Shown: positions 15,624 through 50,295 of the stretch, piece by piece
Position numbering within the stretch: position 1 is the first letter of the stretch
How the letters are laid out: every line of letters begins with the position of its first letter
IMG/VR virus record: IMGVR_UViG_3300045988_134262
Origin: a virus
Direction: 5' to 3' (one strand)
DNA: 50,295 nt
Made by a program: the position numbers and the translations under genes
Notes under the pieces: generated by a model
Database searches by the model: none
What the model was told of the DNA's origin: nothing
The model's input: the letters and a program-made list of their open reading frames with translations, nothing else

Positions 15624-15635
15624 TAGGAGAATGTT

Positions 15636-15875: not shown

Positions 15876-15880
15876 TATAT

Positions 15881-16375: not shown

Positions 16376-16377
16376 GT

Positions 16378-16923: not shown

Positions 16924-17152
16924 AGTATTGGAAAAAATGAATAATGAAGCAACTGCTGTAGTAATTACTATTGGTGGCGATGGTTATTTTATTTGTGCGT
17001 ATAAAAAAGATTTAATAAACAATAAGTGTTTTAAAGAAAAAGTAGGAGATAGAACTGTAACACATTTAGGAGTTACAAGAACATCAAAAGGAGGATTTGG
17101 AATAGCGATCCAATGTGTTATAAATAAAGAGGAGAATAAAAATGATAACTAG
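16910..17152 (+). CDS. Hypothetical protein
   Basis: The start lies in the conserved junction TTGCGAGGTTACTGAAAATG, the same as at 13241-13262. Confidence 0.5.
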   Translation: MTVNEVLEKMNNEATAVVITIGGDGYFICAYKKDLINNKCFKEKVGDRTVTHLGVTRTSKGGFGIAIQCVINKEENKNDN

Positions 17153-17492
17153 ACCAAAATTTGAAGATTATGGATTCCCTAAATCTGAAAATGATTTAGA
17201 ACAATTTGAATTTTATACTTATTATTTAGAGGAGTATTGTGATGAGTTAGAAAAAGCACTTGATAATGCTTGCAAGTATATTCATAATGACGGAATAGAC
17301 GGTTGCCCTTGTAACTATGATTTATCAATAATTTCAGATAAAAAAATGAATGAATGTAATATATGTGATTATCAATGTATTAGTTTCTATGATGAATTAA
17401 ATAGTAGTAAACAACAACAGTATGAATATTTAAAAAAATCCATGAAATGTTGGAAAGAGTATTTTTTAAGAGGAGATGCAGAAAATGATTAA
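17142..17492 (+). CDS. Cys-rich hypothetical protein
   Basis: GAGGAG RBS. Contains CPCNYD...CNICDYQC. Confidence 0.5.
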   Translation: MITRPKFEDYGFPKSENDLEQFEFYTYYLEEYCDELEKALDNACKYIHNDGIDGCPCNYDLSIISDKKMNECNICDYQCISFYDELNSSKQQQYEYLKKSMKCWKEYFLRGDAEND

Positions 17493-17685
17493 AATTGATA
17501 CTATTGTATGCAATGTTATTGATATGGCAATAGATAATAGATTAATGCTTGATGGAAATGAACCAAGTCAAAATAAAAAAGAAGCATTAAAAATAAGAAT
17601 AAATTATCTAAAGCACCTTTTAAATGATTCAAAAGATGAACTTGATGAGATTGAAAGTCTTGAAGAAATAGAAAAATATATATAG
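17476..17685 (+). CDS. Hypothetical acidic protein
   Basis: GAGGAG RBS. This is the last gene before the ORF-poor region. Confidence 0.5.
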   Translation: MQKMIKIDTIVCNVIDMAIDNRLMLDGNEPSQNKKEALKIRINYLKHLLNDSKDELDEIESLEEIEKYI

Positions 17686-17696
17686 AATATAAGTAT

Positions 17697-17826
17697 ATCC
17701 CTATATTGATGTAAATATTTTTTAAAAATTTAGTTACTTGATCTAATCAAAACAAGACTTATAAGAAAATTCTATTAAATACCCGTTTAGATTCTTTTCA
17801 TTTAATCTCATTGTCAATATAGGGAT
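17697..17826 (+). ncRNA. Stem-closed structured element, unit 1 (candidate ncRNA or DNA structure)
   Basis: A perfect 13-bp closing stem pairs ATCCCTATATTGA (17697-17709) with TCAATATAGGGAT (17814-17826). The internal hairpin AGT-TA-CTTG...CAAG-ACT is conserved in unit 2. Confidence 0.4.
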
Positions 17827-17830
17827 TCAA

Positions 17831-17930
17831 TAACGCATTGATATTTAATTTTTAATATTATTAGTTACCTGCACTAATCAAAACAGGACTTTATGCATTT
17901 TAGATTTACCATCTCATTTTCAATGCGTTA
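17831..17930 (+). ncRNA. Stem-closed structured element, unit 2 (paralog of unit 1)
   Basis: A perfect 11-bp closing stem pairs TAACGCATTGA with TCAATGCGTTA. The internal hairpin AGT-TA-CCTG...CAGG-ACT carries a compensatory T-A to C-G change relative to unit 1. Confidence 0.4.
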
Positions 17931-18016
17931 AATAGTGATGAAAACATAAATAAAGAAGAAGAAAGAAGGAAATCACCTCACAGACTAGATTTCCTATGCT
18001 AGTAATCACTATACAT

Positions 18017-18060: not shown

Positions 18061-18102
18061 TAAATTTTTAAAAAAATATAAGTATCACACATCGCTTATT
18101 TA

Positions 18103-18111
18103 TGATATAAT
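18103..18111 (+). promoter_or_regulatory. Extended -10 promoter (TGATATAAT) with a degenerate operator-like GTATCACAC upstream
   Basis: Read directly. There is no good -35. Confidence 0.4.
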
Positions 18112-18126: not shown

Positions 18127-18318
18127 GTGATAACATTGAACGAAAAAACAAGCAAAGCACAACTTAAAGCAAGTGCAAAATACAATAAGATGAATACAAA
18201 GAATTTTCCTATAAAAGTAAATAAGAAGACAGAAAAAGATATTTACGATCATTTAGAAAAAATTGGAAATGTTAATGGATATATTAAGAATTTAATTAAA
18301 GCAGATATCGAACGCTAA
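18127..18318 (+). CDS. Small ribbon-helix-helix-like DNA-binding protein (candidate regulator)
   Basis: The pattern KASAKYNKMNTKNFPIKVNKKTEKDIYDHLEKIGNVNGYIKNLIKADI recalls small Firmicute RHH/CopG-like proteins. The start is ambiguous between GTG 18127 and TTG 18136. Confidence 0.45.
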   Translation: MITLNEKTSKAQLKASAKYNKMNTKNFPIKVNKKTEKDIYDHLEKIGNVNGYIKNLIKADIER

Positions 18319-18339: not shown

Positions 18340-18438
18340 TGTAAAAAATGTAAAAGAATGAGTAAAGTTCGTTGTAAAAAATGTAATAATATGCATAAAA
18401 TTCGTTGTAAAAAATGTAAAAACATGTATAATATTAAT
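18340..18438. repeat. Three tandem 33-bp repeats (TGTAAAAAATGTAAnAnnATGnnTAAnnTTCGT)
   Basis: Units at 18340, 18373 and 18406, read directly. Confidence 0.8.
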
Positions 18439-18604: not shown

Positions 18605-18633
18605 TTGATTGTATGTGATACATATAGTATAAT
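18605..18633 (+). promoter_or_regulatory. Conserved early promoter copy 5 (TTGATT-17-TATAAT) with ATGTGATACAT in the spacer
   Basis: Read directly. Confidence 0.65.
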
Positions 18634-18662: not shown

Positions 18663-18839
18663 ATGAGAGCAAGAATTTATTTAAATGGAAAGAGAATTAC
18701 AAAAAAGAAAGCAAGGGAATTATTTGGAAATGAAAAAGTAGAAAAAAGAATTCAAGAAGCAGAAGAAAGTTTCATTAATGATCCATATGAAGAAATTTCA
18801 TGGATGGACGGAATGGAAATAAGATTTGTATTTAAATAA
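18663..18839 (+). CDS. Small hypothetical protein (58 aa)
   Basis: Conserved leader with an AGAGAGG RBS. Flanked by a promoter copy and a terminator. Too short for the supplied ORF track. Confidence 0.5.
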   Translation: MRARIYLNGKRITKKKARELFGNEKVEKRIQEAEESFINDPYEEISWMDGMEIRFVFK

Positions 18840-18877: not shown

Positions 18878-18905
18878 TTGAAAACATTATGAAAATGAGT
18901 ATAAT
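18878..18905 (+). promoter_or_regulatory. Sigma-A-like promoter (TTGAAA-16-TATAAT) lacking the dyad operator
   Basis: Read directly. It drives the ORF-free segment below. Confidence 0.5.
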
Positions 18906-19176
18906 AATACTTGCAACCAAGAGTTGCAAAGATGCATGTTCTTTTACTCAATTTCTTAAATCATTTTTATATAAGCACTTGAAAATAGTGCTTATAAATA
19001 CACCTATAATTCAATAGTAGAATAATCTCCTTATAAGGGAAATACGGAGGGGCAGAACCTTCTAGGTGTACCATCAATGTATCGTTTTTCATTAGTTTTT
19101 TTCTTAAATTTAGTACGAGGAAAACAGAACACTTTTTTCCAAAAGAAGGCAGTGAAGTTATCACTGTCTTTTTTTT
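18906..19176 (+). ncRNA. Candidate structured RNA or regulatory leader (promoter to terminator, no credible ORF)
   Basis: Hairpins at 18911-18929 (7 bp) and 18971-18995 (9 bp). An 8-bp long-range stem pairs 18999-19006 with 19063-19070. A terminator lies at 19148-19176. Confidence 0.4.
19148..19176 (+). terminator. Rho-independent terminator immediately upstream of the late gene block
   Basis: GGCAGTGA-agtta-TCACTGTC followed by T8. Confidence 0.75.
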
Positions 19177-19276
19177 GTTATTGAAAAATTAAATAATATA
19201 TGTATTCAATTAACAAAATATGATAAAATAATGATGTAAATATGAATAAAAAGGAGATGTGAAAGTATGATGTTTT

Positions 19277-19753
19277 ATGGCTAAGCGTGGAAGAAAAGAA
19301 AAGAAAGAATATATACTTGAAAACCTTGAAGTTATAGAACAAATGGTTTCTAAAGGTTATCCCGAGAAAGATATATGTAAACATCTAGGCATAGGAATAA
19401 GCACATTTTCTAAGTATAAAAAGGAATTAATAGAATTATCAACAGTTCTTAATAAAGCAAAGAAAACAAGGCTTGAAGAACTTGAAAACATCTCTTATAA
19501 AACTGCTATGGGATTTGAATATACAGAAGAAAAAACAATTATTCAATTAGATGAAAATGGGAATCCATCAAGAAGGGTTAAGGAAATTTATAAAAAAAGA
19601 GCGCTACCAAATCCTGCAATGCAACAGTATTTAATGAATAACTGGAGTGATGGAAAATATACTAAAGATCCAATGAACGCTAAATTCAAGGAAGAAGAAT
19701 TAAAACTAAAAAAAGAAGCAAATGAATTAATGAAAGATTGGGATATTGAATGA
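19277..19753 (+). CDS. Terminase small subunit-like HTH protein (alternatively a late regulator)
   Basis: MAKRGRKEK..., the HTH DICKHLGIGISTFSKYKK, then ENISYKTAMGFEYTEEKT...LPNPAMQQYLMNNW. This pattern is common in Firmicute phage small terminases. Confidence 0.5.
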   Translation: MAKRGRKEKKEYILENLEVIEQMVSKGYPEKDICKHLGIGISTFSKYKKELIELSTVLNKAKKTRLEELENISYKTAMGFEYTEEKTIIQLDENGNPSRRVKEIYKKRALPNPAMQQYLMNNWSDGKYTKDPMNAKFKEEELKLKKEANELMKDWDIE

Positions 19754-22196: not shown

Positions 22197-23420
22197 ATGA
22201 ATAATGAAAATTTGATTTTTGTTGACATTGATACAAGAAAAGTAACCATTCCTTTAGATTTTACATTAGGGGTAGTTCACGATGATTCAGTTAAGACTGT
22301 AACATTTCAGTTGCATAAGAAGTCAGATATAACTGACCTTTCAGATTTAACGTTCACAATCAATACAATATCTGCTAAAGGTACTCCAGATATTATTGAC
22401 TGCACCGTAAGAGAGGAAATTGGAGGAGTACTTTATATTTCAGCAATTCTGAAAGGTACAGTGTTTGATTCGAGAGGACGTGCCACGATCAATCTTTGTG
22501 GTCGCAAGTATAACAGTAATAACACCATCATCAAAAAGTGGGGGTCTGAAGACATTACTGTACTTGTTGGAAGTCACACAGATGCTGATAAAGCAATCGA
22601 GGAGCGATATCCAAGCGTTTTAGAAGAATTAAGACAAAAAGTTAACAATCCTAATCTAACAGATGAACAGTTAAGTAGCATCGCTACAAAAGTAGCAGAA
22701 AAAGGGTTCTACACAAAAAGCGAAATTGATAGCATGATTGCTGATATTGTAGTACCTACTAGATTATCACAGTTAGCAGATGATACTACTCACAGACTAG
22801 TTACTGATACAGAAAAAGCAAACTGGAACAATAAAAGTGATTTCGACGGCTCTTATAACTCGTTGACAAATAAGCCTACAATTCCAAGCAATTTATCGCA
22901 GTTGGCAGAAGATGACAGCCACGTTACAGTGACTAGAGCGCAGAAAACCAAGATTGACACTGTACCTACTCAGTTTAAGACAATCACCAACCAAAGCATT
23001 ACAGGAACAGGAAACATAGATATACCGACAGGTGGAACAGGAACATCTATTACTGTAGATACTGCATTATCTAGTACTAGTACCAACCCTGTACAAAATA
23101 AGATAATCAAGGCTGAACTTGATAAAAAGGCAAACAGTACCGATTTAGGTGTTAAAAAAGTAACTCATACCGCTAGTGATACATCTGTTACTATAAATAG
23201 TGGCGAGTATCATGTATTCCCTACAATGACAAGTCTGACTATCACACCAGGAGCAGTCGGAACGGACAAAATGTTTATTTGTGGTTTTGAGTTTACAAGT
23301 GGCGAAACACCTACCGTTTTGACACTTACAGGATGCACATTGAGCAACAGTGATGATGTGACTACAGGTACTTACGAAGTAAACATACTCGGTACTAGTG
23401 CGATTGTGAGGTTGAGATAG
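22197..23420 (+). CDS. Tail fibre / BppU-like baseplate protein
   Basis: The N-terminus is DIDTRKVTIPLDFTLGVVHDDSVKTVTFQL (BppU_N-like). It has repeated LSQLA(D/E)D..H motifs and a T/S/G-rich shaft. Confidence 0.6.
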   Translation: MNNENLIFVDIDTRKVTIPLDFTLGVVHDDSVKTVTFQLHKKSDITDLSDLTFTINTISAKGTPDIIDCTVREEIGGVLYISAILKGTVFDSRGRATINLCGRKYNSNNTIIKKWGSEDITVLVGSHTDADKAIEERYPSVLEELRQKVNNPNLTDEQLSSIATKVAEKGFYTKSEIDSMIADIVVPTRLSQLADDTTHRLVTDTEKANWNNKSDFDGSYNSLTNKPTIPSNLSQLAEDDSHVTVTRAQKTKIDTVPTQFKTITNQSITGTGNIDIPTGGTGTSITVDTALSSTSTNPVQNKIIKAELDKKANSTDLGVKKVTHTASDTSVTINSGEYHVFPTMTSLTITPGAVGTDKMFICGFEFTSGETPTVLTLTGCTLSNSDDVTTGTYEVNILGTSAIVRLR

Positions 23421-23421
23421 T

Positions 23422-23895
23422 ATGGATTTAGTAGAACATAGAAGATTATTAAATAGAAAAGGAAGTGATAATGTGAAGGAATGGGTTAAAGTTTTCGATG
23501 GAAATATTACAGAAATAACTAAAACCATTAATTTTAATAAATTGCCAAGTGGTGAATCGTTTGAATTTGATGAAGTTGTTTTTGAAATAAAGCCAGTTTT
23601 AAATAATACAGGTTCTTTTGTTGTTAGTGGCATCACTACAGGGATTGCATTGACTACTGCAAACACTAGTGCGGACACTGCTTTATCTATTAGTGGTCAT
23701 ATGACTGTTAATCCAATAGGAATTGAGGGCATCGTTATCTCTGAAAACAAAAACGGTTCAATAAAAAGTGAAATACCAAATTATTTCAATAAGTATTCAC
23801 GATTGAGTGGAAAGATTACATCAATCTCTTTTTATAGTACTACAAGTGCTTCTAATTTCACAACAGATACCACAATTCTAATTTATGGAAGATAA
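23422..23895 (+). CDS. Hypothetical fibre-associated protein
   Basis: Call based on position. GAGG RBS. Confidence 0.45.
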   Translation: MDLVEHRRLLNRKGSDNVKEWVKVFDGNITEITKTINFNKLPSGESFEFDEVVFEIKPVLNNTGSFVVSGITTGIALTTANTSADTALSISGHMTVNPIGIEGIVISENKNGSIKSEIPNYFNKYSRLSGKITSISFYSTTSASNFTTDTTILIYGR

Positions 23896-23908
23896 GAGAG
23901 GTGATTAT

Positions 23909-24247
23909 ATGCTTTACAAATTACAAGACAACATTTTAACAAAAGCACCAAAGAGCGTCATTATTGATGGCACTACATATATCAACAACAACGAAGTATT
24001 AAAGCAGTTAGGCTATAAAGAGTTAGTACATGATACTAATGTAGAGGCTGACTCTTATGTATCTAATACAACATATACAGAGGACGATACGCATATTTAC
24101 GAGCATTATGAGTGGTCGAAGTATGAATACACTGAACCTGTGCAAGAACCAACAATCGAAGAACGTTTGACAGAAACAGAAAGCAATGTAACAGAGTTAC
24201 AGATGGCTTTATGTGATATTTACGAAGGGATGAATAACAATGTATAA
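23909..24247 (+). CDS. XkdW-like protein
   Basis: Pattern MLYKLQDN..TKAPKSVIIDGTTYINNNEVLKQLGYKEL, and it sits before an XkdX-like gene, as in PBSX. Confidence 0.45.
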   Translation: MLYKLQDNILTKAPKSVIIDGTTYINNNEVLKQLGYKELVHDTNVEADSYVSNTTYTEDDTHIYEHYEWSKYEYTEPVQEPTIEERLTETESNVTELQMALCDIYEGMNNNV

Positions 24248-24371
24248 AATTTATGCAGATTTGATTGAAAAAGGTCTAAAGACTATTGACGATGTGCCTA
24301 CACGTATTAGGGATAAGGTCAAAAAGGAATTAATCAAAAGGGGTCGTGAAGACCTCGTGGGAGGTAAATAA
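24240..24371 (+). CDS. XkdX-like small protein (43 aa)
   Basis: MYKIYADLIEKGLKTIDDVPTRIRDKVKKEL. The size and position (fibre, XkdW-like, then this gene, then holin) match the PBSX order. Too short for the supplied ORF track. Confidence 0.45.
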   Translation: MYKIYADLIEKGLKTIDDVPTRIRDKVKKELIKRGREDLVGGK

Positions 24372-24373
24372 TT

Positions 24374-24640
24374 ATGGACTTTACACAGTTAACGCAGTAT
24401 TTTGTTTTAGTCGTAATGGTCGCTTGTCTAGTCGTAGGATATATTATCAAGACATCTTTTGATAAAGTACCAAATAAGTACATTCCAACAATTCTTGCGG
24501 TTGTTGGGGCCGTTCTTAACGCAGTAGTTAGTGGCATGTCTGTCAATTCGATTGTTTATGGAGCACTTATGGGGCTTGCTTCTACAGGACTACATCAGGC
24601 CTTTACTAGATTTGTTGAAGGTGAGAAAGAAGGTGTTTAA
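24374..24640 (+). CDS. Holin, copy A
   Basis: Two TM helices. GLASTGLHQAFT is shared with 42414..42674. Confidence 0.7.
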   Translation: MDFTQLTQYFVLVVMVACLVVGYIIKTSFDKVPNKYIPTILAVVGAVLNAVVSGMSVNSIVYGALMGLASTGLHQAFTRFVEGEKEGV

Positions 24641-24856
24641 ATGACTGAGGCACAGGCAGTATACACAGTTATTATTTGTGTTGGAGCGCTAATAGGAGTG
24701 ATGACTCCTGTTCTAAAATTAAATAATAGCATTACTAAACTAACAACTGCATTAGAATATCTAGCCACAGACAATAGAAGACAGGATGCGAGATTAGATG
24801 CACATGCGAAGGAATTGGATGACCACGAAAAAAGAATCAGTCATCTAGAAAAGTAG
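24641..24856 (+). CDS. XhlA-like membrane/coiled-coil lysis protein, copy A
   Basis: An N-terminal TM helix is followed by the coiled coil RLDAHAKELDDHEKRISHLE. Paralog of 42685..42945. Confidence 0.6.
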   Translation: MTEAQAVYTVIICVGALIGVMTPVLKLNNSITKLTTALEYLATDNRRQDARLDAHAKELDDHEKRISHLEK

Positions 24857-24867
24857 AGGATTAAAAG

Positions 24868-25164
24868 ATGAAGATATTCATATCGCAGCCCATGAAAGGC
24901 TTATCAGAGAAAGAAATCAAATCAAATAGAGAGAAGGCTATCAAAAACATCAAGAGCCTATACGGTGATGATGTTGAAATTATTGATAGTTATATCGATG
25001 ACGATGAAAAGCCATTATTTAAGTTAGGTAAGTCAATTGAATTATTATCAACTGCAGATATTATTTATTTATGCAAGGGCTGGAATAAGGCGCGCGGTTG
25101 CAAAATTGAATATATGTGCGCATCAGATTATGATATTAAGATTATTTTTGAAGAAGGTGATTAA
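24868..25164 (+). CDS. DUF4406-like (nucleoside 2-deoxyribosyltransferase-like fold) protein
   Basis: MKIFISQPMKG ... ADIIYLCKGWNKARGCKIEYMCA matches the MKIYIAGPm.G ... D.v..l.gW..S.G...E...A pattern. Confidence 0.5.
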   Translation: MKIFISQPMKGLSEKEIKSNREKAIKNIKSLYGDDVEIIDSYIDDDEKPLFKLGKSIELLSTADIIYLCKGWNKARGCKIEYMCASDYDIKIIFEEGD

Positions 25165-25166
25165 AT

Positions 25167-26054
25167 ATGAAGGTAAACGTACACGGTGGACATTCTCTTA
25201 AATGTAGAGGAGCAAGCGGATTATTAGACGAAGTAAACGAAGATAGAGCGGTAAAGAATAGAGTAATTGAATTGTTACGTGCAAATGGACATACTGTTTA
25301 TGATTGTACAGATGATAACGGAACAACACAAAATGCGAACCTAAAAGCAATCGTTAATAAATGTAATTCACATTCTGTTGATTTGGATGTATCTATTCAT
25401 CTAAACGCAGGAGGTGGAACAGGAACAGAGGTATATATCTATAACAGTAAATCAAAAGCAAAAGATGAAGCAACTAGAATTGCGGAAAATGTTTCTAGTG
25501 CATTAGGTATCAGAAATAGAGGAGTTAAAACAAGTACTAGTTTATACGTATTGAGAAAGACAAAAAGTCCAAGTCTTTTAATTGAATGCTGTTTTGTTGA
25601 TAACGAAACAGATAAAGTAAGATGGAACGCTGACAAGTGTGCAAAAGCAATTGTTGAAGGTATTCTAAATGATGCAGTAAATAATGTTACTCATACAGAA
25701 TCACCAAATCCAAAGCCAACAACAAACCATAACGCAAATGGCTATGATGAATGGGTAGCACGTTTACAGAGAGAACTAAATGATCAGTTTGATAAAGGTT
25801 TGGACGTTGACGGATTAAAAGGTCATAAGACTTTAAATGCATGCGTAACAGTCAAGCGTGGAGCAATGGGAAATATCACAAGATTAATTCAAGAAAGATT
25901 AAATAGCGTTGGATTCAGTCTTTCAACTGATGGAATCTTTGGTGGAAACACTGAAAATGCCGTTAAAGTATTCCAAAAAAATAGAGGATTGAAATCAGAT
26001 GGAATTGTTGGAAGAAATACATGGAATTGGCTTCTTAAAGGAACTAAGATGTAG
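25167..26054 (+). CDS. Endolysin: N-acetylmuramoyl-L-alanine amidase (Amidase_3) with two PG_binding_1 repeats
   Basis: The amidase part has HGGHS...E...D..SIHLNAGGGTG.EV...LLIECCFVDN. The C-terminal repeats are LQRELN...GLDVDG and VFQKNRGLKSDGIVGRNTW. Confidence 0.85.
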   Translation: MKVNVHGGHSLKCRGASGLLDEVNEDRAVKNRVIELLRANGHTVYDCTDDNGTTQNANLKAIVNKCNSHSVDLDVSIHLNAGGGTGTEVYIYNSKSKAKDEATRIAENVSSALGIRNRGVKTSTSLYVLRKTKSPSLLIECCFVDNETDKVRWNADKCAKAIVEGILNDAVNNVTHTESPNPKPTTNHNANGYDEWVARLQRELNDQFDKGLDVDGLKGHKTLNACVTVKRGAMGNITRLIQERLNSVGFSLSTDGIFGGNTENAVKVFQKNRGLKSDGIVGRNTWNWLLKGTKM

Positions 26055-27590: not shown

Positions 27591-29331
27591 GCCTTTATAT
27601 CTCAAGACAAAAGAAACATGGTTGGAAACCTATCAAGATTGCATCAATAAAGGATATATTGATTTATACAATGAGGAAAAAGATGAATACATCAAAACAC
27701 CTTTAATAGTAGGAATGGAAATGAGAAAAGAAATAGATAAATTAGTTGAAGATCTTTCAAATCCTAAATATATCTATGATACAAAAGAAAGTGAAAAAAG
27801 AATTAGATTCAAGGAAACGTGTTGCTTTCAAGGGAAAAAGCCTTTCTTTATGAAGGCTATGAGTTTGATGCTACAGCAAAAAGCATTTTGGGAAGTTGTA
27901 TATAGTTTTAAAATGGCAGATACAGGAATAAGGAGATTTAATGAAGTTCTTGAATTAGTAGGAAGAAAAAACGGAAAATCAACAGACCTTGCAAGTGATG
28001 GAAATTTTGATTTATTTCTTGGCAGTGGTGGTGAGGATATCGTTTGTGCTTCAAATGATGATAAACAGGCTTCTCTTATATGGAAAGAAATAGGAGGTAT
28101 GAGAGGAAGGCTTGATACTAAAAATGAACTCACAAGGCAGAATTTAGCAGAAATAAGAAACGATATAAAGAACATCACAATATTTAAAATGAGTGAAAAG
28201 ACACAAAATAAAGATGGTCGAAATATTGATAAATGCTATTATGATGAAATGCATGATAGCAAGACTAATGAAATATTCATGGCATGTTGGGAAAGTATGT
28301 CCATTAAAGATAATCCGTTACTGATAACAAGTACAACAGAGGGTTTTATAAATGATGGGCTACTTGATGAAAAACTAGAATATGCTAGAGGTGTTTTGAA
28401 TGATGAAATTGATGATGAACATTTCTTGCCATGGTTGTTTACTCAAGATTCAACACAAGAAATATTCCAAGATAAATGGAGTTGGTGCAAATCAAATCCA
28501 TCTTTAATTTATGGAGTAAAGAAATGGTCATTCATTGAAAAGAATATGATTAAGGCTAAGTTATCAAAGTCTTCAAAAGTGCATATGTTATGTAAGGATT
28601 TTAATATCAAGCAGAACAGTGCAGAAGCATGGTTACAAGATGATTGCTTTTACCCTCAAAATATTTATTCACTTGAGGACTTTAAAAACTGCGTAGCAAT
28701 AGCAGGAGCAGATTTATCGCAGACATCAGACTTGACTTGTGTAACTATGATGTTTATGAGACCTAATGACGAGCATAAATATTTCTATAATAAATATTTC
28801 ATTCCCGAAAGCAAATTGGATAGCGATAAAAATGGGGGTGCAAGATATAGAGAGTGGGCGCAAAGAGGGTTTGTTGAAGTCCATGAAGGTAATAGAGTTT
28901 CACTTTCTAAAGTTGCTGAATGGTATTTAAAGGTATTTGAGCAATACAATATTAGAATATTTAAATTAGGATATGACCAACGTTTTGCAAATGATTTCTT
29001 AAATGCTATGAAAGAAATTGGTTACGGATATAAAAAAGGTGAAACTTGCGAAATGATAAATCAGAATAAATATGTAATGAGTACACCAATGAAACATCTT
29101 GAAGCAGACTTAAAATCTCAATATGTTCAAGGACTTAATGAGGTTGACTTGTGGTGTTTCAAAAATACAACTTTTGAAATGGATAACAATGAATTGATAT
29201 TGCCTGCTAAGATGAAAACAGAAATGCGAATTGATGGAACTAGTGCATGCATAGATACTTATGCGATATTATACAGATATGAGAATGAATACATGAAGCA
29301 TGTCAACGAATATAATGGAGGTGTTGAATAG
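27583..29331 (+). CDS. terL: Terminase large subunit (Terminase_1 type)
   Basis: Walker A VGRKNGKST, Walker B-like CYYDEMHD, and a C-terminal nuclease region. The TTG start is inferred because the first in-frame ATG is 43 codons downstream. Confidence 0.85.
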   Translation: MSKPLYLKTKETWLETYQDCINKGYIDLYNEEKDEYIKTPLIVGMEMRKEIDKLVEDLSNPKYIYDTKESEKRIRFKETCCFQGKKPFFMKAMSLMLQQKAFWEVVYSFKMADTGIRRFNEVLELVGRKNGKSTDLASDGNFDLFLGSGGEDIVCASNDDKQASLIWKEIGGMRGRLDTKNELTRQNLAEIRNDIKNITIFKMSEKTQNKDGRNIDKCYYDEMHDSKTNEIFMACWESMSIKDNPLLITSTTEGFINDGLLDEKLEYARGVLNDEIDDEHFLPWLFTQDSTQEIFQDKWSWCKSNPSLIYGVKKWSFIEKNMIKAKLSKSSKVHMLCKDFNIKQNSAEAWLQDDCFYPQNIYSLEDFKNCVAIAGADLSQTSDLTCVTMMFMRPNDEHKYFYNKYFIPESKLDSDKNGGARYREWAQRGFVEVHEGNRVSLSKVAEWYLKVFEQYNIRIFKLGYDQRFANDFLNAMKEIGYGYKKGETCEMINQNKYVMSTPMKHLEADLKSQYVQGLNEVDLWCFKNTTFEMDNNELILPAKMKTEMRIDGTSACIDTYAILYRYENEYMKHVNEYNGGVE

Positions 29332-42413: not shown

Positions 42414-42674
42414 ATGAATTTAGATTTTTTAACTAATTATTTAGTTTGTGTGATTGTTGGTATTTGCTTATGTGTTGGGTTTGTCATTAAAACAAGCATT
42501 CCAAAGATTGATAACAAATATATTCCATTGATTATGGCAATTTTAGGAATTATATTAAATGTATGGATAAATATGAGTTTCACACCCGATATTATATTAG
42601 GTGGCTTATTCAGTGGTTTAGCATCAACAGGATTACATCAAGCATTTACGCAAATAATCAATAAAGAAGAATAG
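42414..42674 (+). CDS. Holin, copy B
   Basis: Two TM helices. GLASTGLHQAFT is shared with 24374..24640. Confidence 0.7.
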   Translation: MNLDFLTNYLVCVIVGICLCVGFVIKTSIPKIDNKYIPLIMAILGIILNVWINMSFTPDIILGGLFSGLASTGLHQAFTQIINKEE

Positions 42675-43030: not shown

Positions 43031-43061
43031 TTAAAAAAATAAGGTGATTCCTCACCTTATT
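43031..43061 (-). terminator. Terminator of the leftward early unit
   Basis: AATAAGGTGA-ttcc-TCACCTTATT is a perfect 10-bp stem. The A-run on the + strand gives a T-run on the - strand. Confidence 0.7.
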
Positions 43062-43368
43062 CAAAATATCCTTCTTCTTTTAATTGCTTTCTTACTGCAT
43101 TCATAAGTTTTCTATAAGTAAGGATTGAACCATCTTCAAGTTCTAGTTCATCACAATCATTAAGATATAAATTAGCATTAATATGAAAGTCGGAGTAATC
43201 TGCTAAAATATAGCGGACGTCTCCTTTCATTGACTTGCTATCTCTTCCTGTTTCTTCAAGATATTCAGACCAGGTTTTAATTCCCAAATCTTTATAATAT
43301 CCATCTAAATCACTTTTTACATCTTCCACTACTAATTTAGTTGCTAATTCAAATTTATTCATATTCAT
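43057..43368 (-). CDS. Hypothetical acidic protein
   Basis: Minus-strand ORF with the conserved leader and promoter copy 6. Confidence 0.6.
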   Translation of the reverse strand: MNMNKFELATKLVVEDVKSDLDGYYKDLGIKTWSEYLEETGRDSKSMKGDVRYILADYSDFHINANLYLNDCDELELEDGSILTYRKLMNAVRKQLKEEGYFE

Positions 43369-43391: not shown

Positions 43392-43420
43392 ATTATATAT
43401 GTAATACATATAAAAGTCAA
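43392..43420 (-). promoter_or_regulatory. Conserved early promoter copy 6 (minus strand, TTGACT-17-TATAAT) with ATGTATTACAT in the spacer
   Basis: The reverse complement was read directly. Its spacer is identical to that of copy 8. Confidence 0.65.
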
Positions 43421-43464
43421 CAACATTTTGAATATTTCTTAGAATTTTCATTATATGAAAAAAT

Positions 43465-43490
43465 GGTGTTTATAGTGTTATCGCTTCACT
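43465..43490 (-). repeat. 28-bp conserved element copy 2 (minus strand: AGTGAAGCGATAACACTATAAACACC)
   Basis: Begins 5 nt after the stop of the minus-strand gene 43496..43813. Confidence 0.7.
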
Positions 43491-43495
43491 TTTTA

Positions 43496-43813
43496 CTAGT
43501 CCTTATAATCAAGTAATACTGGAGAAATTCCACAATGCTTACAATATGCTTTATATCCTTTATAACAGACTTTCATAATAGGTGCTACTATTTCATCTAA
43601 TTCGTTGTATTCCTTCTTTAGCGTTCTATATTCGTAGTTTTTTACGCATTCACAAATACTTGTATCACGCACTAAGTCTTTTATCTCATTGTTTAGATTC
43701 TCAAGTAATGCTAGACAATTACTGAACATTTTAAAGTCATATACTTGTAATTTATAATGATCATTAATGCTTGCCCTTGATTTTTTCACCATTGTTAAAT
43801 TTACATTATTCAT
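43496..43813 (-). CDS. Hypothetical protein, family B paralog
   Basis: See 8886..9254. Contains KEYNELDEIVAPIMKVCYKGYKAYCKHC. Confidence 0.6.
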   Translation of the reverse strand: MNNVNLTMVKKSRASINDHYKLQVYDFKMFSNCLALLENLNNEIKDLVRDTSICECVKNYEYRTLKKEYNELDEIVAPIMKVCYKGYKAYCKHCGISPVLLDYKD

Positions 43814-44022
43814 TATTCAATCACCTCATATTTATTTTTCTTAACGTATGTTTTTGATGTTAAACTTCTAACTCTAAAGTCTGCTTCTTCTGTATTCAAC
43901 CACTTATAAGCATCTTCTAAATTATCAAACTTTTTAGCGTATCCATGCCATTTTCCAAATTCAAACTTTTCAGATACTCCATACACAAATCCATTCTTTT
44001 TGAAATAAGTTTCTACTTTCAT
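43813..44022 (-). CDS. Hypothetical protein
   Basis: Minus-strand ORF behind promoter copy 7. Confidence 0.55.
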   Translation of the reverse strand: MKVETYFKKNGFVYGVSEKFEFGKWHGYAKKFDNLEDAYKWLNTEEADFRVRSLTSKTYVKKNKYEVIE

Positions 44023-44058
44023 ATTCTTTTCTCCTTTCCTATTTCACTTTACGAATAC

Positions 44059-44087
44059 ATTATACTATATGTGATACACATAATCAA
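44059..44087 (-). promoter_or_regulatory. Conserved early promoter copy 7 (minus strand, TTGATT-17-TATAAT) with GTGTATCACAT in the spacer
   Basis: The reverse complement was read directly. It is divergent from copy 8. Confidence 0.6.
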
Positions 44088-44152
44088 TCCTTTTTGTAAC
44101 ATTTTCTATTATTTTCATTTTATGAAAATATCAAAATTAAGCATAAATGTGC

Positions 44153-44181
44153 TTGACTTTTATATGTATTACATATATAAT
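44153..44181 (+). promoter_or_regulatory. Conserved early promoter copy 8 (TTGACT-17-TATAAT) with ATGTATTACAT in the spacer
   Basis: Read directly. Confidence 0.65.
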
Positions 44182-44211
44182 AAAGGTGTAGTAAGAAAGG
44201 GGTAAAAGAAT

Positions 44212-44346
44212 ATGACAAGAGAAGAAATGGATAAACTTAATGTTGGAGATAAAGTGGAAGTAAAAACATATAATACAACAACATCAGCGAAAGTAAACGG
44301 ATTTACTGAAACACTAGATAATGAATTGACTAGATTATGCAAATAA
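44212..44346 (+). CDS. Small hypothetical protein (44 aa)
   Basis: Conserved leader AAGGGGTAAAAGAATATG. Too short for the supplied ORF track. Confidence 0.45.
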   Translation: MTREEMDKLNVGDKVEVKTYNTTTSAKVNGFTETLDNELTRLCK

Positions 44347-44382
44347 AACTACTGATTTAAATGATGACCTATTAAAAAATAG

Positions 44383-44410
44383 AGTGAAGCGATAACACAA
44401 AAAACACTAA
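44383..44410 (+). repeat. 28-bp conserved element copy 3 (AGTGAAGCGATAACACAAAAAACACTAA)
   Basis: Read directly. Confidence 0.7.
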
Positions 44411-44428
44411 ACTTTTTTACAAAAACAC

Positions 44429-44457
44429 TTGTATATATGTATCACATATGATATAAT
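44429..44457 (+). promoter_or_regulatory. Conserved early promoter copy 9 (TTGTAT-17-TATAAT) with ATGTATCACAT in the spacer
   Basis: Read directly. Confidence 0.65.
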
Positions 44458-44487
44458 TTACTTGTAAAGGAAAGAGGGTACAAGAAA

Positions 44488-44685
44488 ATGATTGAAAATT
44501 TATATGCATATCTTATGAATACAAAAGAGAATGAAATTATTATCAGAACATCGCACGTAAAAGGATGTTGGGACGATAATGAGTTCGATGCTAACAAGGC
44601 AGGATTCAACATTGCAAGATTCATCAATCCAGAATATAAAGCAAAGAATGAATTTTCCGAATGTTACAAATTGACAAGAAGATGA
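44488..44685 (+). CDS. Hypothetical protein
   Basis: Single-gene cassette between promoter copy 9 and a terminator. Confidence 0.55.
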   Translation: MIENLYAYLMNTKENEIIIRTSHVKGCWDDNEFDANKAGFNIARFINPEYKAKNEFSECYKLTRR

Positions 44686-44692
44686 ATAAAAG

Positions 44693-44716
44693 GCACTCAA
44701 TAAAGAGTGCTTTTTA
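44693..44716 (+). terminator. Rho-independent terminator
   Basis: GCACTC-aataaa-GAGTGC followed by a T-run. Confidence 0.7.
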
Positions 44717-44750
44717 TTATCAAAAAAATTAAAAAATCACAAAAAATATA

Positions 44751-44779
44751 TTGACATTATATGTGATACATAGTATAAT
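44751..44779 (+). promoter_or_regulatory. Conserved early promoter copy 10 (TTGACA-17-TATAAT) with ATGTGATACAT in the spacer
   Basis: Consensus -35 and -10. Bases 44766-44817 are identical to 8843-8894. Confidence 0.75.
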
Positions 44780-44808
44780 AAATATGTAAAGAAGAGAGGT
44801 AAACGAAT

Positions 44809-45300
44809 ATGAAAACATTTAATGAATCAATGATTAACAATTATAAGGAATTTAATAACAAAGGTAGTTTTGAAATTGAAGGATACATGGTAAAATTCAA
44901 TAACAATACAAAAGAATTAGAAACTGAATATCCATTCGCTAGTGATTTGCGAGTTTGGTGGTTTGGATTAGAAAAAGAAGAAAAAGAAGATAAAAGAGCA
45001 GAACTAATCAAGGAACAGGGATTCGAGGAAATAACAGAAGAAGCAATCAATAAATTAGAAAATATGACAACTAAAAGTGCTAAATTTACACTTGATAGAA
45101 TGCAGAAATATAATCGCAGAATATTCAAGAAAGATAATTTAGTGATTGTACATGGTCAGTGCTATGTAACTGCTAAGGAATTAAAACAGTTAGAAAAGGT
45201 TTACGGTTGTGAAACAAAAGATGCTCAAATCTACTTTGATGAAATCGGAATGATACGTGTATGGAATAAATTATCTAGAGAAGCATGGACTAATAAATAA
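44809..45300 (+). CDS. Hypothetical protein
   Basis: Single-gene cassette. Confidence 0.55.
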   Translation: MKTFNESMINNYKEFNNKGSFEIEGYMVKFNNNTKELETEYPFASDLRVWWFGLEKEEKEDKRAELIKEQGFEEITEEAINKLENMTTKSAKFTLDRMQKYNRRIFKKDNLVIVHGQCYVTAKELKQLEKVYGCETKDAQIYFDEIGMIRVWNKLSREAWTNK

Positions 45301-45364
45301 CAGGAGGGTCGGAAAACCGACCTTCCCAATATATTAAAATAAATAAAAAAGTTATCATATGTAC

Positions 45365-45393
45365 TTGATATTTATATGTAATACATATATAAT
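45365..45393 (+). promoter_or_regulatory. Conserved early promoter copy 11 (TTGATA-17-TATAAT) with TATATGTAATACATATA in the spacer
   Basis: Read directly. This copy has the longest perfect dyad (8-1-8). Confidence 0.7.
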
Positions 45394-45437
45394 ATACTTG
45401 TAGAAAGAAAAGAGTAAACCTCTAAGGAGATAAAATT

Positions 45438-45950
45438 ATGAGCATGAAAAAAATCAGAGAAGTATCAAGAAATATGTCAGTTGAAGAAATAAGAGAAGAT
45501 GTGGAAAGAATTAAAATTGAATTTCCACAATTAGAATCTAATTGTGATTCAATTAATTTCGATAGACCAAAAGGTGCTATCAACAGAGAGTATAAGTTTC
45601 TTCTTGAAGATGTAAAAAGTTTAGAAGATACTGATATTCAAGACTTCTATAAATTTAAAGATTGCCAAGATAGATTAGACAATCTAAAAAAATTAGTTTC
45701 TAATTATTGGGAATGTGATGTAAGTGATTTTGGAGAAGCACTTGCAACAAATAGAGAATTGGCAGAAAAAGAATATGCTTCATTAAAAAAGACATATGAA
45801 GATTTAAGAGAAGCATTAAAGCCAATCATGAAAGATTCTTATAAAGGTTATAAGGCTCATTGCGAGTTTTGCAGAATTCCTTATAGTCATTATGAGGAAT
45901 TTGAAGAAGTAAACGAAGAAGATTTATTTGCTTCAATATTAGGAATGTAG
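45438..45950 (+). CDS. Hypothetical protein, family B paralog (longer N-terminus)
   Basis: Contains KKTYEDLREALKPIMKDSYKGYKAHCEFC. Confidence 0.6.
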   Translation: MSMKKIREVSRNMSVEEIREDVERIKIEFPQLESNCDSINFDRPKGAINREYKFLLEDVKSLEDTDIQDFYKFKDCQDRLDNLKKLVSNYWECDVSDFGEALATNRELAEKEYASLKKTYEDLREALKPIMKDSYKGYKAHCEFCRIPYSHYEEFEEVNEEDLFASILGM

Positions 45951-45963
45951 GGAGGTATCAAGC

Positions 45964-46149
45964 ATGAAAAAATTAAGATTTAAAAAATGGGTAACAAACC
46001 TACTTCTTACAGTTAATTTTATAATCTGCGTTATGATGTTAACTATTCAAGATTTTGATCTATGTTTTACATCATTATTGTTTATGATTGGTATGCCAAT
46101 AATCTTTTTGATTAACTCATATCTTTTAATTGAATACGGAGGAATATAA
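45964..46149 (+). CDS. Small membrane protein
   Basis: Two hydrophobic helices. Confidence 0.5.
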   Translation: MKKLRFKKWVTNLLLTVNFIICVMMLTIQDFDLCFTSLLFMIGMPIIFLINSYLLIEYGGI

Positions 46150-46150
46150 T

Positions 46151-46456
46151 ATGGAATACAGCGATAAAGAAGTGAATGCTATAATCTTTACAGAAAAATA
46201 TAAATACTATAAAGATTATGTAGAACGATTAGAAAAGGATTATGATGGTCTTTTAGATGAAATAGAAGACTTAGAAAAGCAAATCAAAAAACTAAAATAT
46301 GAAAATAGAAATCTAAAGAAGCAAAATAAAGAATACAAAAAAAGCGGTATTCTAAATGATGCAGATGCTCAAAGATATAGAGAAATGTGTATCAGTCAAA
46401 AAAAGAAAATAAATGAATTAAAATTGCTATTAAGAGTAGAAAGATCAAAGCACTAA
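46151..46456 (+). CDS. Coiled-coil hypothetical protein
   Basis: GGAGG RBS before the ATG at 46151. K/E-rich with heptad-like spacing. Confidence 0.5.
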   Translation: MEYSDKEVNAIIFTEKYKYYKDYVERLEKDYDGLLDEIEDLEKQIKKLKYENRNLKKQNKEYKKSGILNDADAQRYREMCISQKKKINELKLLLRVERSKH

Positions 46457-46472
46457 AATAGTGCTTTTTTTA
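46449..46472 (+). terminator. Rho-independent terminator
   Basis: AAGCACT-aaaat-AGTGCTT followed by a T-run. Confidence 0.75.
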
Positions 46473-46505
46473 TTGAAAAAAATTATAAAAATTTGCTATA
46501 TGCGC

Positions 46506-46534
46506 TTGATTATATATGTATTACATAGTATAAT
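46506..46534 (+). promoter_or_regulatory. Conserved early promoter copy 12 (TTGATT-17-TATAAT) with ATGTATTACAT in the spacer
   Basis: Read directly. Confidence 0.7.
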
Positions 46535-46578
46535 ATACTTGTAAAGAGAAGAGGGCAAACCCCTAAAGGAGATCAATT

Positions 46579-46887
46579 ATGACAGACGAAGAACTATTAC
46601 ATAGAATGACGTTCAAAGAAGTAAATGAAATTAGAAAAGACTTGCAAGATAAGTTAGAAATGGTATTATTTAAAAATAATCTTGGAATTAGAATTGCAAG
46701 GGTGCAGTTTGAAGATGAAAAATTAAATATCAATCAAATTTACCCTGTAGAGTTTAAACTAACAATTATGAGTATTGTTGGATTAGATACCTACGCTATG
46801 AGAAGACTTACAAATGCATTAAATGAAATTCGTGCAGAAATAGAAGTAGTAAATAAAGAGTACGAAGGATATACTTTTGTATTTTAG
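46579..46887 (+). CDS. Hypothetical protein
   Basis: Single-gene cassette. Confidence 0.55.
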   Translation: MTDEELLHRMTFKEVNEIRKDLQDKLEMVLFKNNLGIRIARVQFEDEKLNINQIYPVEFKLTIMSIVGLDTYAMRRLTNALNEIRAEIEVVNKEYEGYTFVF

Positions 46888-46915
46888 GAGTGTTAAATCA
46901 CTCCTTTTATTTTTT
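46886..46915 (+). terminator. Rho-independent terminator
   Basis: AGGAGTG-ttaaat-CACTCCT followed by a T-run. Confidence 0.75.
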
Positions 46916-46936
46916 CTAAAAAAGTTTAAAAAAGGC

Positions 46937-46965
46937 TTGATTATATGTAGTACATATAGTATAAT
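46937..46965 (+). promoter_or_regulatory. Conserved early promoter copy 13 (TTGATT-17-TATAAT) with ATGTAGTACAT in the spacer
   Basis: Read directly. Confidence 0.7.
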
Positions 46966-47009
46966 ATACTTGTAGAAAGAAAAGGGTAACCCCCTAAGGA
47001 GAAAAGAAT

Positions 47010-47603
47010 ATGAATACTTACAGAGTTAATAATGATTACATCATGGTAGTAGGAGAAGGAAAAAAAGAAAACGCAGACATCTTATGTTGTTTATATGATT
47101 TAAGTGTTGGTAAGAAACCAACATTAAATACATTAGATTATTTAAAATTAATTCCTAATTTTGAAATAATTAATTTTAATGAAATCAAAAATAAAAACTT
47201 TGATGGAAGATTATGTTGGATAATTCAAAGTGGAATCGCATTTATTGCTGATACTCATACATATGTTGAAATCCTTAAAAATGAGGATTTGAAAGAAATC
47301 AAACCTTTCAATGTAGTAAAAACTTATAGTGATGTTGGTAGCGTAAAAATTGGAAATGATAGTTTTCAATTTAATATTCCTAATGGTTATGGAGATGGAT
47401 ATACAGATGTATTGATTTCTGATACACCAACAGAAGCACCAACCAATGCTGAATATGTTATGCATATTGATGGAGATTTCAATATTTACTCATATGATTG
47501 TGATGCAAGTGATATAGCACATACATTACATGGAGCATATTATGTATTTTCACAAAGAGATGTCAAAGCATCTCATGGAAAAGTGTGGTTTATAAAAGAG
47601 TGA
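47010..47603 (+). CDS. Hypothetical protein
   Basis: Single-gene cassette. Confidence 0.55.
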   Translation: MNTYRVNNDYIMVVGEGKKENADILCCLYDLSVGKKPTLNTLDYLKLIPNFEIINFNEIKNKNFDGRLCWIIQSGIAFIADTHTYVEILKNEDLKEIKPFNVVKTYSDVGSVKIGNDSFQFNIPNGYGDGYTDVLISDTPTEAPTNAEYVMHIDGDFNIYSYDCDASDIAHTLHGAYYVFSQRDVKASHGKVWFIKE

Positions 47604-47617
47604 TAGCACTCTTTTAT
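47595..47617 (+). terminator. Rho-independent terminator
   Basis: AAAGAGTG-atag-CACTCTTT followed by TAT. It overlaps the stop codon. Confidence 0.65.
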
Positions 47618-47652
47618 AACTGCAAAAAGATTAAAAAAATTTAAAAAAAGTA

Positions 47653-47681
47653 TTGACTTTTCTATGTATTACATATTTAAT
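47653..47681 (+). promoter_or_regulatory. Conserved early promoter copy 14 (TTGACT-17-TTTAAT) with ATGTATTACAT in the spacer
   Basis: Read directly. The -10 is imperfect. Confidence 0.55.
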
Positions 47682-50163: not shown

Positions 50164-50295
50164 GCATAAACAGAGTAGTTCTTTTAGGTAATATGACTAA
50201 AGATCCAGAACTAAGAAGAACAGGAAGTGGAAAAGCCGTAACAAATTTCACATTAGCATTGAATAGATATAACAATGATGATGCAGATTTCGTTG
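50160..50295 (+). CDS. ssb: Single-stranded DNA-binding protein, N-terminal part (continues at base 56 of the window through the 55-bp overlap)
   Basis: ATGA overlap with erf. See feature 1..360. Confidence 0.85.
50241..50295. repeat. 55-bp exact copy of bases 1-55 (circular closure / assembly overlap)
   Basis: Direct comparison of both ends shows identical sequence. Confidence 0.95.

Follow-up and report, generated by a model that had tools for sequence, protein, structure and literature searches.

One palindrome in the spacers of 13 phage promoters: a putative operator, a predicted early regulon and a candidate 60-residue repressor

Why should a phage carry one and the same palindrome between the -35 and -10 hexamers of 13 of its promoters? 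The question is raised by a viral genome of 50,295 bases and 27% GC (IMG/VR record IMGVR_UViG_3300045988_134262; 'the window' in the following is this whole stretch, whose genes lie almost all on the plus strand), in which nine such promoters are found between positions 43392 and 47681 and four at other places. Their common element is a dyad of 17 bp with the consensus TATATGT-N3-ACATATA, which can also be written TATATGTA-N-TACATATA, the central base being free. The answer favoured here, from comparison of sequences, is that the 13 promoters with their one operator are repressed jointly by a phage protein, and that this protein is the product of g46 (18136-18318, plus strand); taken as a whole, this statement is on balance considered probable. 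The g46 protein, of 60 amino acids (63 with the GTG at 18127 as start codon), is the foremost candidate for a dyad-binding repressor.

Promoters and dyads were counted as pattern matches over the whole 50-kb genome and compared with expectation. The pattern TTGAYW-N17-TATAAT is matched 11 times, against 0.36 expected, and none of 100 shuffles reaches 11; one of the matches, at 40413, is inside a coding region and without a dyad, and looks like chance. The core of the dyad, ATGTRNYACAT, has 12 exact matches in the genome (0.56 expected), all 12 of them inside promoter spacers. With relaxed hexamers, 13 clear promoter units are obtained, namely nine in 43392-47681, two of which are on the minus strand, and four at 8828, 10060, 14435 and 18605. 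In their hexamers and spacing they correspond to promoters of the housekeeping sigma-70/sigma-A type: TTG is invariant in the -35 hexamer, which reads TTGA(C/T)(A/T) in 11/13 units and TTGTAT in the other two (10060 and 44429); the -10 hexamer is TATAAT in 12/13 and TTTAAT at 47653; and the spacer has 17 bp in 13/13. The genome-wide counts thus bear out what an earlier note on this DNA had claimed of nine copies in 43392-47681 and of an invariant 17-bp spacer, and its description of all copies as having TTGAyw and TATAAT holds for all except the units just named. Among the further copies that it listed, those at 8828, 10060, 14435 and 18605 stand, but that at 18103, which it took to be degenerate, is a promoter of a different build. 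All 13 promoters are intergenic and lie 23-44 nt ahead of a start codon that is preceded by a Shine-Dalgarno sequence. Their leaders are conserved as well (ACTTGTAAAG...). In the array at 43-48 kb, most units end in an intrinsic terminator, with 11 terminator-like sites where 1.2 are expected.

The position of the dyad within the spacer is not constant. It occupies three registers, its centre being placed 7, 8 or 10 nt ahead of the -10 hexamer as counted to the first base of the latter, while hexamers and 17-bp spacing are fixed, so that the dyad must be an element separate from the promoter. When the units are aligned on the centre of the dyad, TATGT/ACATA at positions +-2 to +-6 is invariant and complementary in 13/13, with one change at -5; the information content of the spacer averages 0.57 bit per position in the frame of the hexamers, but in that of the dyad each position from +-1 to +-6 has 1.0-2.6 bit. 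The hexamers, in turn, make room for the dyad. In register 2, closest to the -35, this hexamer departs from consensus (TTGATT, TTGTAT) and accommodates the left arm; in register 5, nearest the -10, TATA is common to the right arm and TATAAT. Such accommodation points to selection on two overlapping functions. The dyad is, indeed, a two-fold symmetric sequence conserved independently of the hexamers, that is, a discrete element selected on top of promoter function. Promoter function itself does not require it, because dyad-free promoters exist in the same genome, one at 3037 ahead of the replication module (TTGAAT-16-TATAAT, conserved in clade A of the related phages described below) and one at 18878 ahead of a tRNA gene (TTGAAA-16-TATAAT). 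Isolated TATATGTA half-sites outside the dyads are not enriched in the genome (7 against 5.9 expected), and a literature search on the motif strings returned nothing relevant. The shift of the dyad by up to 3 nt between fixed hexamers and the perfect 8-1-8 palindrome at 45373-45389 had both been described correctly before; the claim that every spacer contains a dyad of the type ATGTA-N-TACAT also stands for all 13 spacers, except that the core at 44059 on the minus strand has one mismatch.

Relatives were collected by a scan of IMG/VR with the 17-mer and by fetching loci via the exonuclease and g46. Around 70 distinct dyad promoters, in the same three registers, were found in four clades (A to D) of related human-gut phages, whose shared proteins are 36-94% identical, and flanks and leaders diverge across these clades while the dyad is kept. 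In one relative (L081) the symmetry is preserved by a symmetric double change, ATGTGT…ACACAT. In clade C the promoters have a second dyad directly upstream of the -35, at 23-24 bp from the first. Relatives of the exonuclease at <=64% identity are without dyad promoters. A scan of IMG/VR with the conserved leader (TATAATNNACTTGTAAAG) gave mostly chance matches, a few promoters sharing the leader without the dyad, and a metagenome scan with the g46 alignment returned close relatives only, all from the human gut. The earlier proposal, namely that a symmetric site in the spacer serves as the operator at which a repressor occludes RNA polymerase throughout the set, is therefore supported in silico by the selection that the dyad experiences on its own, by its conservation next to diverging flanks and by its occurrence in promoters only; on these grounds the dyad is held with good confidence to be a repressor operator.

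Operators in pairs, 23-24 bp apart, are thus present in clade C and also in many loci of distant g46-family members (examples from the two groups are L441, 1077-1115 and 1681-1720; L442, 1516-1550; L251, L446, L458 and L469), with one member of the pair over or upstream of the -35 and the other in the spacer or over the -10. Such pairs suggest that two repressor units bind cooperatively to the same face of the helix.

Which protein would bind the dyad? Among the small proteins, only the g46 product was found in all four clades, and all 11 of the dyad-bearing IMG/VR contigs that exceed 44 kb, or otherwise carry the region, encode it. A profile search (E <= 1e-5) assigns 4,853 members to its family, which has no Pfam domain and no name, and for which NCBIfam and PHROGs give no function. 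Distant homologues, at 40-56% identity, come from phages with 37-57% GC, many of which are temperate. Their genes close a small operon, or lie close to its end, and the sigma-A promoter of this operon carries a dyad of related half-sites. Among these dyads are ATAGGTGTATACTTAT, in the promoter core of the operon; ATAAGTAATACCTAT and ATATGTATACATAT, inside 17-bp spacers; TAAGTAATACTTA, over the -10; TATATGTACCCATATA, in three copies; and ATAGGT-GTAT-ACTTAT, which covers the -10 and is often accompanied, at a distance of 23 bp, by ATAGGTGTTGACATAT or ATAGGGGTAGACATAT over the -35. To require palindromes in the vicinity of the distant homologues to be both perfect and repeated proved too strict, and the strict definition GTA-N0-2-TAC matched only one locus (L260). 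With one regular expression applied to 351 kb, 13 of the 22 matches are found <=2 kb upstream of a g46-family gene, a zone that makes up 19% of the sequence (binomial p = 4e-5); limited to 200 bp upstream, the same test is not significant (p = 0.17), because the promoters sit further upstream in the operons. In the reverse direction, 18 of 50 exact ATAGGTGTATACTTAT sites in IMG/VR have an open reading frame (ORF) of the g46 family (E <= 1e-19 with a hidden Markov model) <=3.5 kb downstream on the same strand, and these 18 are nearly all of the sites with promoter context and enough downstream sequence. The family-wide linkage of gene and dyad is shown by the sequences, as are the elements themselves, their statistics and their conservation.

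The genes between the dyad promoter and the distant g46 homologue are ORFans, with the addition, in two operons, of a full-length ArdC anti-restriction protein (phrog_7245, E = 1e-70). At the start of the presumed ribbon, the family members that go with the N4-spaced ATAGGT operator show either NTxQ…LKLN or an insertion of 3 residues, where those with N3-spaced operators have N, I, M or V; a ribbon residue may therefore co-vary with the type of operator, on weak evidence that is not corrected for phylogeny.

Within the window, g46 is monocistronic and stands behind a promoter of its own (18078-18111, plus strand), the one dyad-bearing promoter that is built differently from the other 13. It consists of a dyad with two mismatches, ATAAGTATCACACAT (18078-18092), centred at about -33, and of an extended -10, TGATATAAT (18103-18111), with no -35; the layout is common to clades A and D. 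The lack of a -35 and the imperfect dyad are what would be expected of a weakly expressed, self-limited repressor gene, and we take 18078-18111 to be the autoregulated promoter of the putative repressor gene.

Extended -10-like promoters with no recognisable -35 precede three genes that are not behind dyad promoters: besides g46, these are the gene of the small terminase subunit (TerS; TGATAAAAT, ~19228-19236) and that of a ParB_N-domain protein (TGGTATATA, ~5793-5801). They may form a second, -35-independent class of promoters used after the early shut-off.

As to the fold of g46, the AlphaFold2 model of the monomer, built on an alignment of 106 sequences, has a predicted local distance difference test score of 89 and comprises an N-terminal helix (7-20), an extended segment with alternating hydrophobic residues (21-33) and two further helices (34-42 and 46-59). 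This order of elements fits a ribbon-helix-helix (RHH) protein in which the strand would form only in the dimer and which has an extra helix at the N terminus. The g46 sequence itself has no match in Pfam or among PDB sequences, its comparison with Arc by hhalign gives a probability of 0.3, and Pfam, NCBIfam and PHROGs reveal neither a helix-turn-helix (HTH) domain nor a match to a described family of anti-CRISPR-associated (Aca) proteins.

From these elements we infer binding, repression, their timing and the part of g46 as the binder, in the following sequence. On phage entry, the RNA polymerase of the host with sigma-A would fire the 13 strong promoters, and the cassettes would express short sets of ORFans (probably genes of host takeover or anti-defence), an ArdC-N-like gene and the recombination operon. 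The g46 protein, made from a weaker, -35-independent promoter, would appear with delay and in self-limited amount. Once accumulated, it would occupy the 17-bp operators in dimeric or higher oligomeric form, and, since the operator overlaps one or both hexamers, RNA polymerase would be excluded or promoter opening blocked. All 13 cassettes would then be shut down together, which would amount to negative feedback and early shut-off at the same time, and the imperfect operator at -33 of the g46 promoter would finally limit g46 itself. The tolerance of 3 bp in the position of the operator fits occlusion and argues against an activation that depends on helical phase.

Several observations weigh against g46 as the common binder. 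In clade B, a dyad-like element upstream of g46 is located at ~-47 and not over the core promoter; in clade C, the g46 homologue is only 36% identical while the dyad is unchanged. The linkage of gene and dyad could in part be the inheritance of one promoter-gene cassette, many of the loci being related, and the related dyads differ in their inner spacing (N2, N3, N4), which one unchanged binding geometry would not tolerate. Searches by structure and sequence yielded no significant match for an RHH fold: two Foldseek runs of g46 against the PDB gave no match, the best hit of the family profile among PDB sequences is 2k1o at E = 0.42, and Pfam on 25 family members yielded stray weak single matches, to HicB (E = 0.0018, 1/25) and Arc (E = 0.15, 1/25). 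Finally, a small share of the probability belongs to other small proteins of the phage that resemble DNA-binding proteins (3100-3240, 1037-1243 and 10694-10864).

The latter had been named, together with 18127-18318, as candidate binders in the earlier note, and comparative genomics singles out g46 among the four whereas the other three have no specific support. That the operator is bound by one of them, namely by the CopG-like protein of 46 amino acids (3100-3240) or by the paralogous HTH-like proteins 1037-1243 and 10694-10864, is an unlikely explanation, if the least unlikely of the alternatives. The first has the size and residue pattern of CopG, is positioned upstream of an initiator gene and is expressed from the conserved dyad-free promoter at 3037, as a master regulator might be; however, its place directly upstream of the replication initiator (HTH_36/DnaD-like) is the copG-repB arrangement, and the protein is more likely to regulate its own dyad-free operon. 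It was found, on partial data, in clades A and B only, and has no Pfam, PDB-sequence or phage match and no detectable similarity to RHH proteins, nor did BLASTP align it with CopG. As to the other two, which are paralogues (E = 1e-7), an HTH-like segment is present, relatives of 10694-10864 occur in clades B and C, and a 17-bp palindrome with half-sites ~10 bp apart would suit an HTH dimer too. But none of the three proteins is linked to the dyad across its family, and DNA-binding families are matched by none of them, apart from a weak DUF658.

A host transcription factor, of the GntR/FadR type or another global regulator, could also bind the dyad and would then couple early expression to the state of the host. 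TGT-N3-ACA does resemble the general shape of GntR-family operators, and no classical repressor was found in the phage by Pfam. The related dyads, however, follow the g46 family across phages of 27-57% GC and, hence, very different hosts, which makes a host factor improbable. In addition, a search for the exact 17-mer in 185,579 genomes gave, among the matches listed, at least 120 scattered single ones in unrelated taxa, with no regulon-like clustering, no prophage relatives and no clue to the host.

Slightly less credit still is given to the view that the dyad has no dedicated binder, and that the palindrome is a legacy of the duplication of a promoter cassette, or a spacer whose sequence or structure (AT-rich bendability, a cruciform) tunes promoter strength. 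The 13 promoters plainly share ancestry, down to their leaders, and conserved spacer bases are known from some early promoters of phages, for example T4, where no repressor is involved. Yet simple duplication would keep one register where three are seen, with hexamers that adapt to the dyad; symmetry is maintained, even through the double change of L081, and the dyad is unchanged where its flanks diverge; working promoters do without it; and the arms, with 8 bp, are short for a cruciform to be extruded stably. Lastly, an activator or a spacer-remodelling factor of the MerR type is scarcely credible: MerR-family regulators do bind dyads in promoter spacers, but their promoters have over-long spacers of 19-20 bp, while the optimal 17 bp in 13/13 units and the near-consensus hexamers call for no activator and argue against a MerR-type mechanism, an activator would need a fixed helical phase where the position of the dyad varies by 3 bp, and the Pfam and PHROG scans of the genome found no MerR-family protein.

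If the 13 cassettes are, as proposed, repressed together through g46, their content indicates what would be shut off. On the minus strand, the unit at 43392-43420 (TTGACT, tttatATGTATTACATa, TATAAT; register 5), whose 8-1-8 palindrome overlaps the -10, drives the ORFan 43057-43368, and that at 44059-44087 (TTGATT, atGTGTATCACATatag, TATAAT; register 2), with the one-mismatch core, drives 43813-44022 and 43496-43813. Divergent from the promoter at 44087, and on the plus strand like all those that follow, the unit at 44153-44181 (register 5) drives an ORF of 44 amino acids (44212-44346). It is followed by 44429-44457 (TTGTAT, atATGTATCACATatga, TATAAT; register 2), driving 44488-44685 with a terminator at 44693-44710; by 44751-44779 (register 4), with the consensus -35 TTGACA, driving 44809-45300; and by 45365-45393 (register 5), the unit with the perfect palindrome, which drives the three ORFs of 45438-46456, has a hairpin in its leader and ends in a terminator at 46447-46467. 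The unit at 46506-46534 (register 4) drives 46579-46887 (terminator 46886-46905), that at 46937-46965 (register 2, with G as the central base) drives 47010-47603, and that at 47653-47681 (register 5, -10 TTTAAT) heads a long operon, from 47712 onward to 3029 across the genome ends, which encodes an exonuclease, ERF, the single-stranded DNA-binding protein (SSB), NinB, MazG and RusA. Outside the array, 8828-8856 (register 4) drives the ORFans 8886-10034; 10060-10088 (TTGTAT, register 2) has as its first gene 10119-10427, which is ArdC-N-like (anti-restriction); 14435-14463 (register 4) drives 14496-17685, consecutive ORFans some of which belong to a paralogue family; and 18605-18633 (register 2), directly downstream of g46, drives an ORF of 58 amino acids (18663-18839). 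PHROG and Pfam searches of the cassette genes gave almost no matches.

Two sets of paralogues are found among the early genes. Five Cys-rich proteins of ~155-180 amino acids (12800-13276, 13450-13917, 13962-14417, 14775-15248 and 16378-16923) match phrog_22292. A second set, with the C-terminal motif …Y.GYK..C, comprises 8886-9254, 43496-43813 and 45438-45950, each of them behind a dyad promoter. As to the leaders, the longer ones (45394-45437, 46535-46578 and 46966-47009, and those of the relatives L063, L067, L078, L017, L080 and L009) contain a hairpin of 4-6 bp at ~+12 to +25, followed by the Shine-Dalgarno sequence AAGGAG. The stems differ between copies yet stay complementary (AGAG/CCUC-like, GGGAGUUC/GAACUC, GGAGAACC/GGGUUC, GGGAUAAC/GUUAUC), with minimum free energies of -2.4 to -7.4 kcal/mol when each leader is folded alone, and RNAalifold on the mixed hairpins gave no consensus structure. 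The hairpin may be a 5' stabiliser or a modulator of translation.

The last ~60 bases of the window repeat its first bases within the SSB gene (50164-50295 and 1-360), so that the window is a complete, circularly closed phage genome, from the human gut, in which the SSB gene and the operon from promoter 47653 cross the junction. Scans with Pfam and PHROGs reveal a recombination and replication set (a PD-(D/E)XK-type exonuclease, ERF, SSB, NinB, MazG, an HNH endonuclease, RusA and a DnaD/HTH_36 initiator) and a late region of siphovirus type (TerS, the large terminase subunit TerL, portal, protease, capsid, tape measure, Dit, Tal, two holins and an amidase). The same scans found no integrase, recombinase, repressor of the CI/Cro type (HTH_3) or ParA, because of which the phage is probably virulent; the sole match related to lysogeny is the ParB_N-domain protein, of 157 amino acids. 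Judged by TerL, the nearest isolate is Butyrivibrio virus Arian (51% identity). Megablast of the region against 50,697 deposited phage records gave no match and an exact look-up of TerL in assemblies no record; close relatives are represented by contigs of ~52 kb that stem from metagenomes of the human gut.

A module for 7-deazaguanine modification of DNA at 6296-8776 (plus strand), with a part at 11441-12316, encodes a DpdA-like transglycosylase (phrog_887, E = 2e-56), QueD/PTPS, the radical-SAM protein QueE and GTP cyclohydrolase I (FolE), and is accompanied by a PAPS-reductase/PP-loop protein. The DNA of the phage is thus probably modified at G, and the modification could affect the single invariant G:C of each operator half-site.

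The surroundings of g46 and of the terminase genes also deserve description. On the plus strand upstream of g46, at 17699-17935, there is a tandem pair of elements of ~120 nt, each closed by a stem of 11-12 bp (CCCTATATTGA…TCAATATAGGG and AACGCATTGA…TCAATGCGTT) and both containing the inner motif TTAGTTACYTG…CTAATCAAAACARGACTT; the RNA folds with -40.5 kcal/mol (z = -3.15), has no Rfam match and could be a non-coding RNA or a structure for replication or packaging. Clade D has a gap of similar size ahead of g46. The interval from g46 to promoter 18605 contains a direct repeat of 33 bp in three copies (TGTAAAAAATGTAA…TTCGT; 18340-18438, plus strand), which lie ~0.9 kb upstream of the TerS gene and may be pac/TerS-binding repeats or iterons. 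Further downstream, a tRNA gene (19000-19070, plus strand; Rfam RF00005, 45.2 bits, E = 1.6e-6) has the anticodon loop CUUAUAA, hence the anticodon UAU, and an encoded CCA; it was missed by ARAGORN and by the Rfam scan in gathering mode, and is located in an ORF-less transcript of ~290 nt with the dyad-free consensus promoter at 18878-18905 and a terminator at ~19148-19180. The ORF at 19277-19753, considered as an HTH regulator, was rejected as such, being the TerS gene (phrog_309, E = 4e-19). Between TerS and TerL (27721-29331) there is a module of 8 kb for tail fibres and lysis. The two holin genes (Phage_holin_5_2) belong to separate modules, at 24374-24640 and 42414-42674, and the endolysin (an amidase with PG_binding_1, 25167-26054) is beside the first holin only; in clade C, the module 22197-26054 adjoins the tail genes, which implies that it was relocated in the genome analysed here.

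The model of 13 promoters, one operator and one candidate of 60 amino acids is compact and can be tested as an account of the timing of early expression in a virulent gut phage. If true, it would give a large family of small phage proteins, at present without any assigned role, its first function, and the dyad consensus promoter together with a g46-like gene would offer a handle in the search for early and anti-defence genes of uncultivated phages, as aca genes do for anti-CRISPRs. The promoter-operator pair would also provide a strong natural cassette for repressible expression in low-GC Bacillota. A broader and more tentative proposal, which we would rate as somewhat short of an even chance, is that the g46 family is an unrecognised, widespread class of Aca-like master regulators in gut Bacillota phages, that dyad promoters mark cassettes for anti-defence and host takeover, and that, in the lineage of the window, the operator-promoter unit was multiplied to at least 13 copies, so that one autoregulated operon became an early regulon spread over the genome of a virulent phage; the binding of g46 may, moreover, differ on 7-deazaguanine-modified DNA.

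How does such a system compare with those already described? Arrays of consensus-like promoters for the host RNA polymerase, each with one or few small ORFans and then a terminator, are typical of the early regions of the Bacillus phage SPO1 and of T5, and the layout of promoter-gene-terminator cassettes of ORFans is the same here; to our knowledge, those arrays have no common palindromic operator in their spacers and are shut off by other means. In scale, the many copies of one site across the genome recall the operators of P1 C1, the 'stoperators' of mycobacteriophage L5 gp71 and the conserved inverted repeats of phiC31, where one repressor acts at many genome-wide sites and silences many units. 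Those systems, however, maintain lysogeny, the sites of P1 and L5 are asymmetric and the stoperators of L5 act largely inside transcription units, whereas all sites of the window are symmetric and inside promoter spacers, and no temperate lifestyle is recognisable.

Arc of phage P22, at the promoter Pant, is likewise a small phage repressor (~53-60 amino acids for Arc and g46) with a palindromic operator in the spacer of a strong promoter of the sigma-70 type, where it represses by blocking the binding of RNA polymerase or the opening of the promoter, as is here proposed only, and the g46 model has the order of extended segment, helix and helix of an RHH monomer. On the other hand, g46 has no detectable match to Arc in sequence or fold; Arc acts at one promoter only, which belongs to the immunity region of a temperate phage, in contrast to one operator type in 13 promoters of a genome with no integrase; and the Arc operator has 21 bp and takes up two dimers, the dyad 17 bp with arms of 7-8 bp.

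Aca repressors control very strong early promoters of acr operons, which contain small, hypervariable anti-defence genes, have inverted repeats over the promoter core and end with the gene of the regulator (PMC9410906). The arrangement of the distant g46 homologues, at the end of operons behind a strong promoter with an inverted repeat, is of this type, and two of these operons contain ArdC genes, while an ArdC-N-like gene follows promoter 10060 in the window. There are differences, too. The Aca families in the cited work are HTH proteins, whereas g46 has no HTH and no match to an annotated family; for the cargo here, a possible anti-defence role is suggested by the ArdC and ArdC-N annotations, the remainder being ORFans; and in the window the regulator has its own promoter and would govern 13 separate units rather than just its own operon. 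The system is thus not a demonstrable member of the Arc, Aca, multi-operator immunity or SPO1/T5 families. In geometry it appears closest to Arc at Pant, and in logic to the repression of anti-CRISPR promoters by Aca proteins; repression through an operator within the promoter is a known principle, and what is new is an unannotated family of putative regulators whose apparently autoregulated promoter has been multiplied into what would be a genome-wide early regulon.

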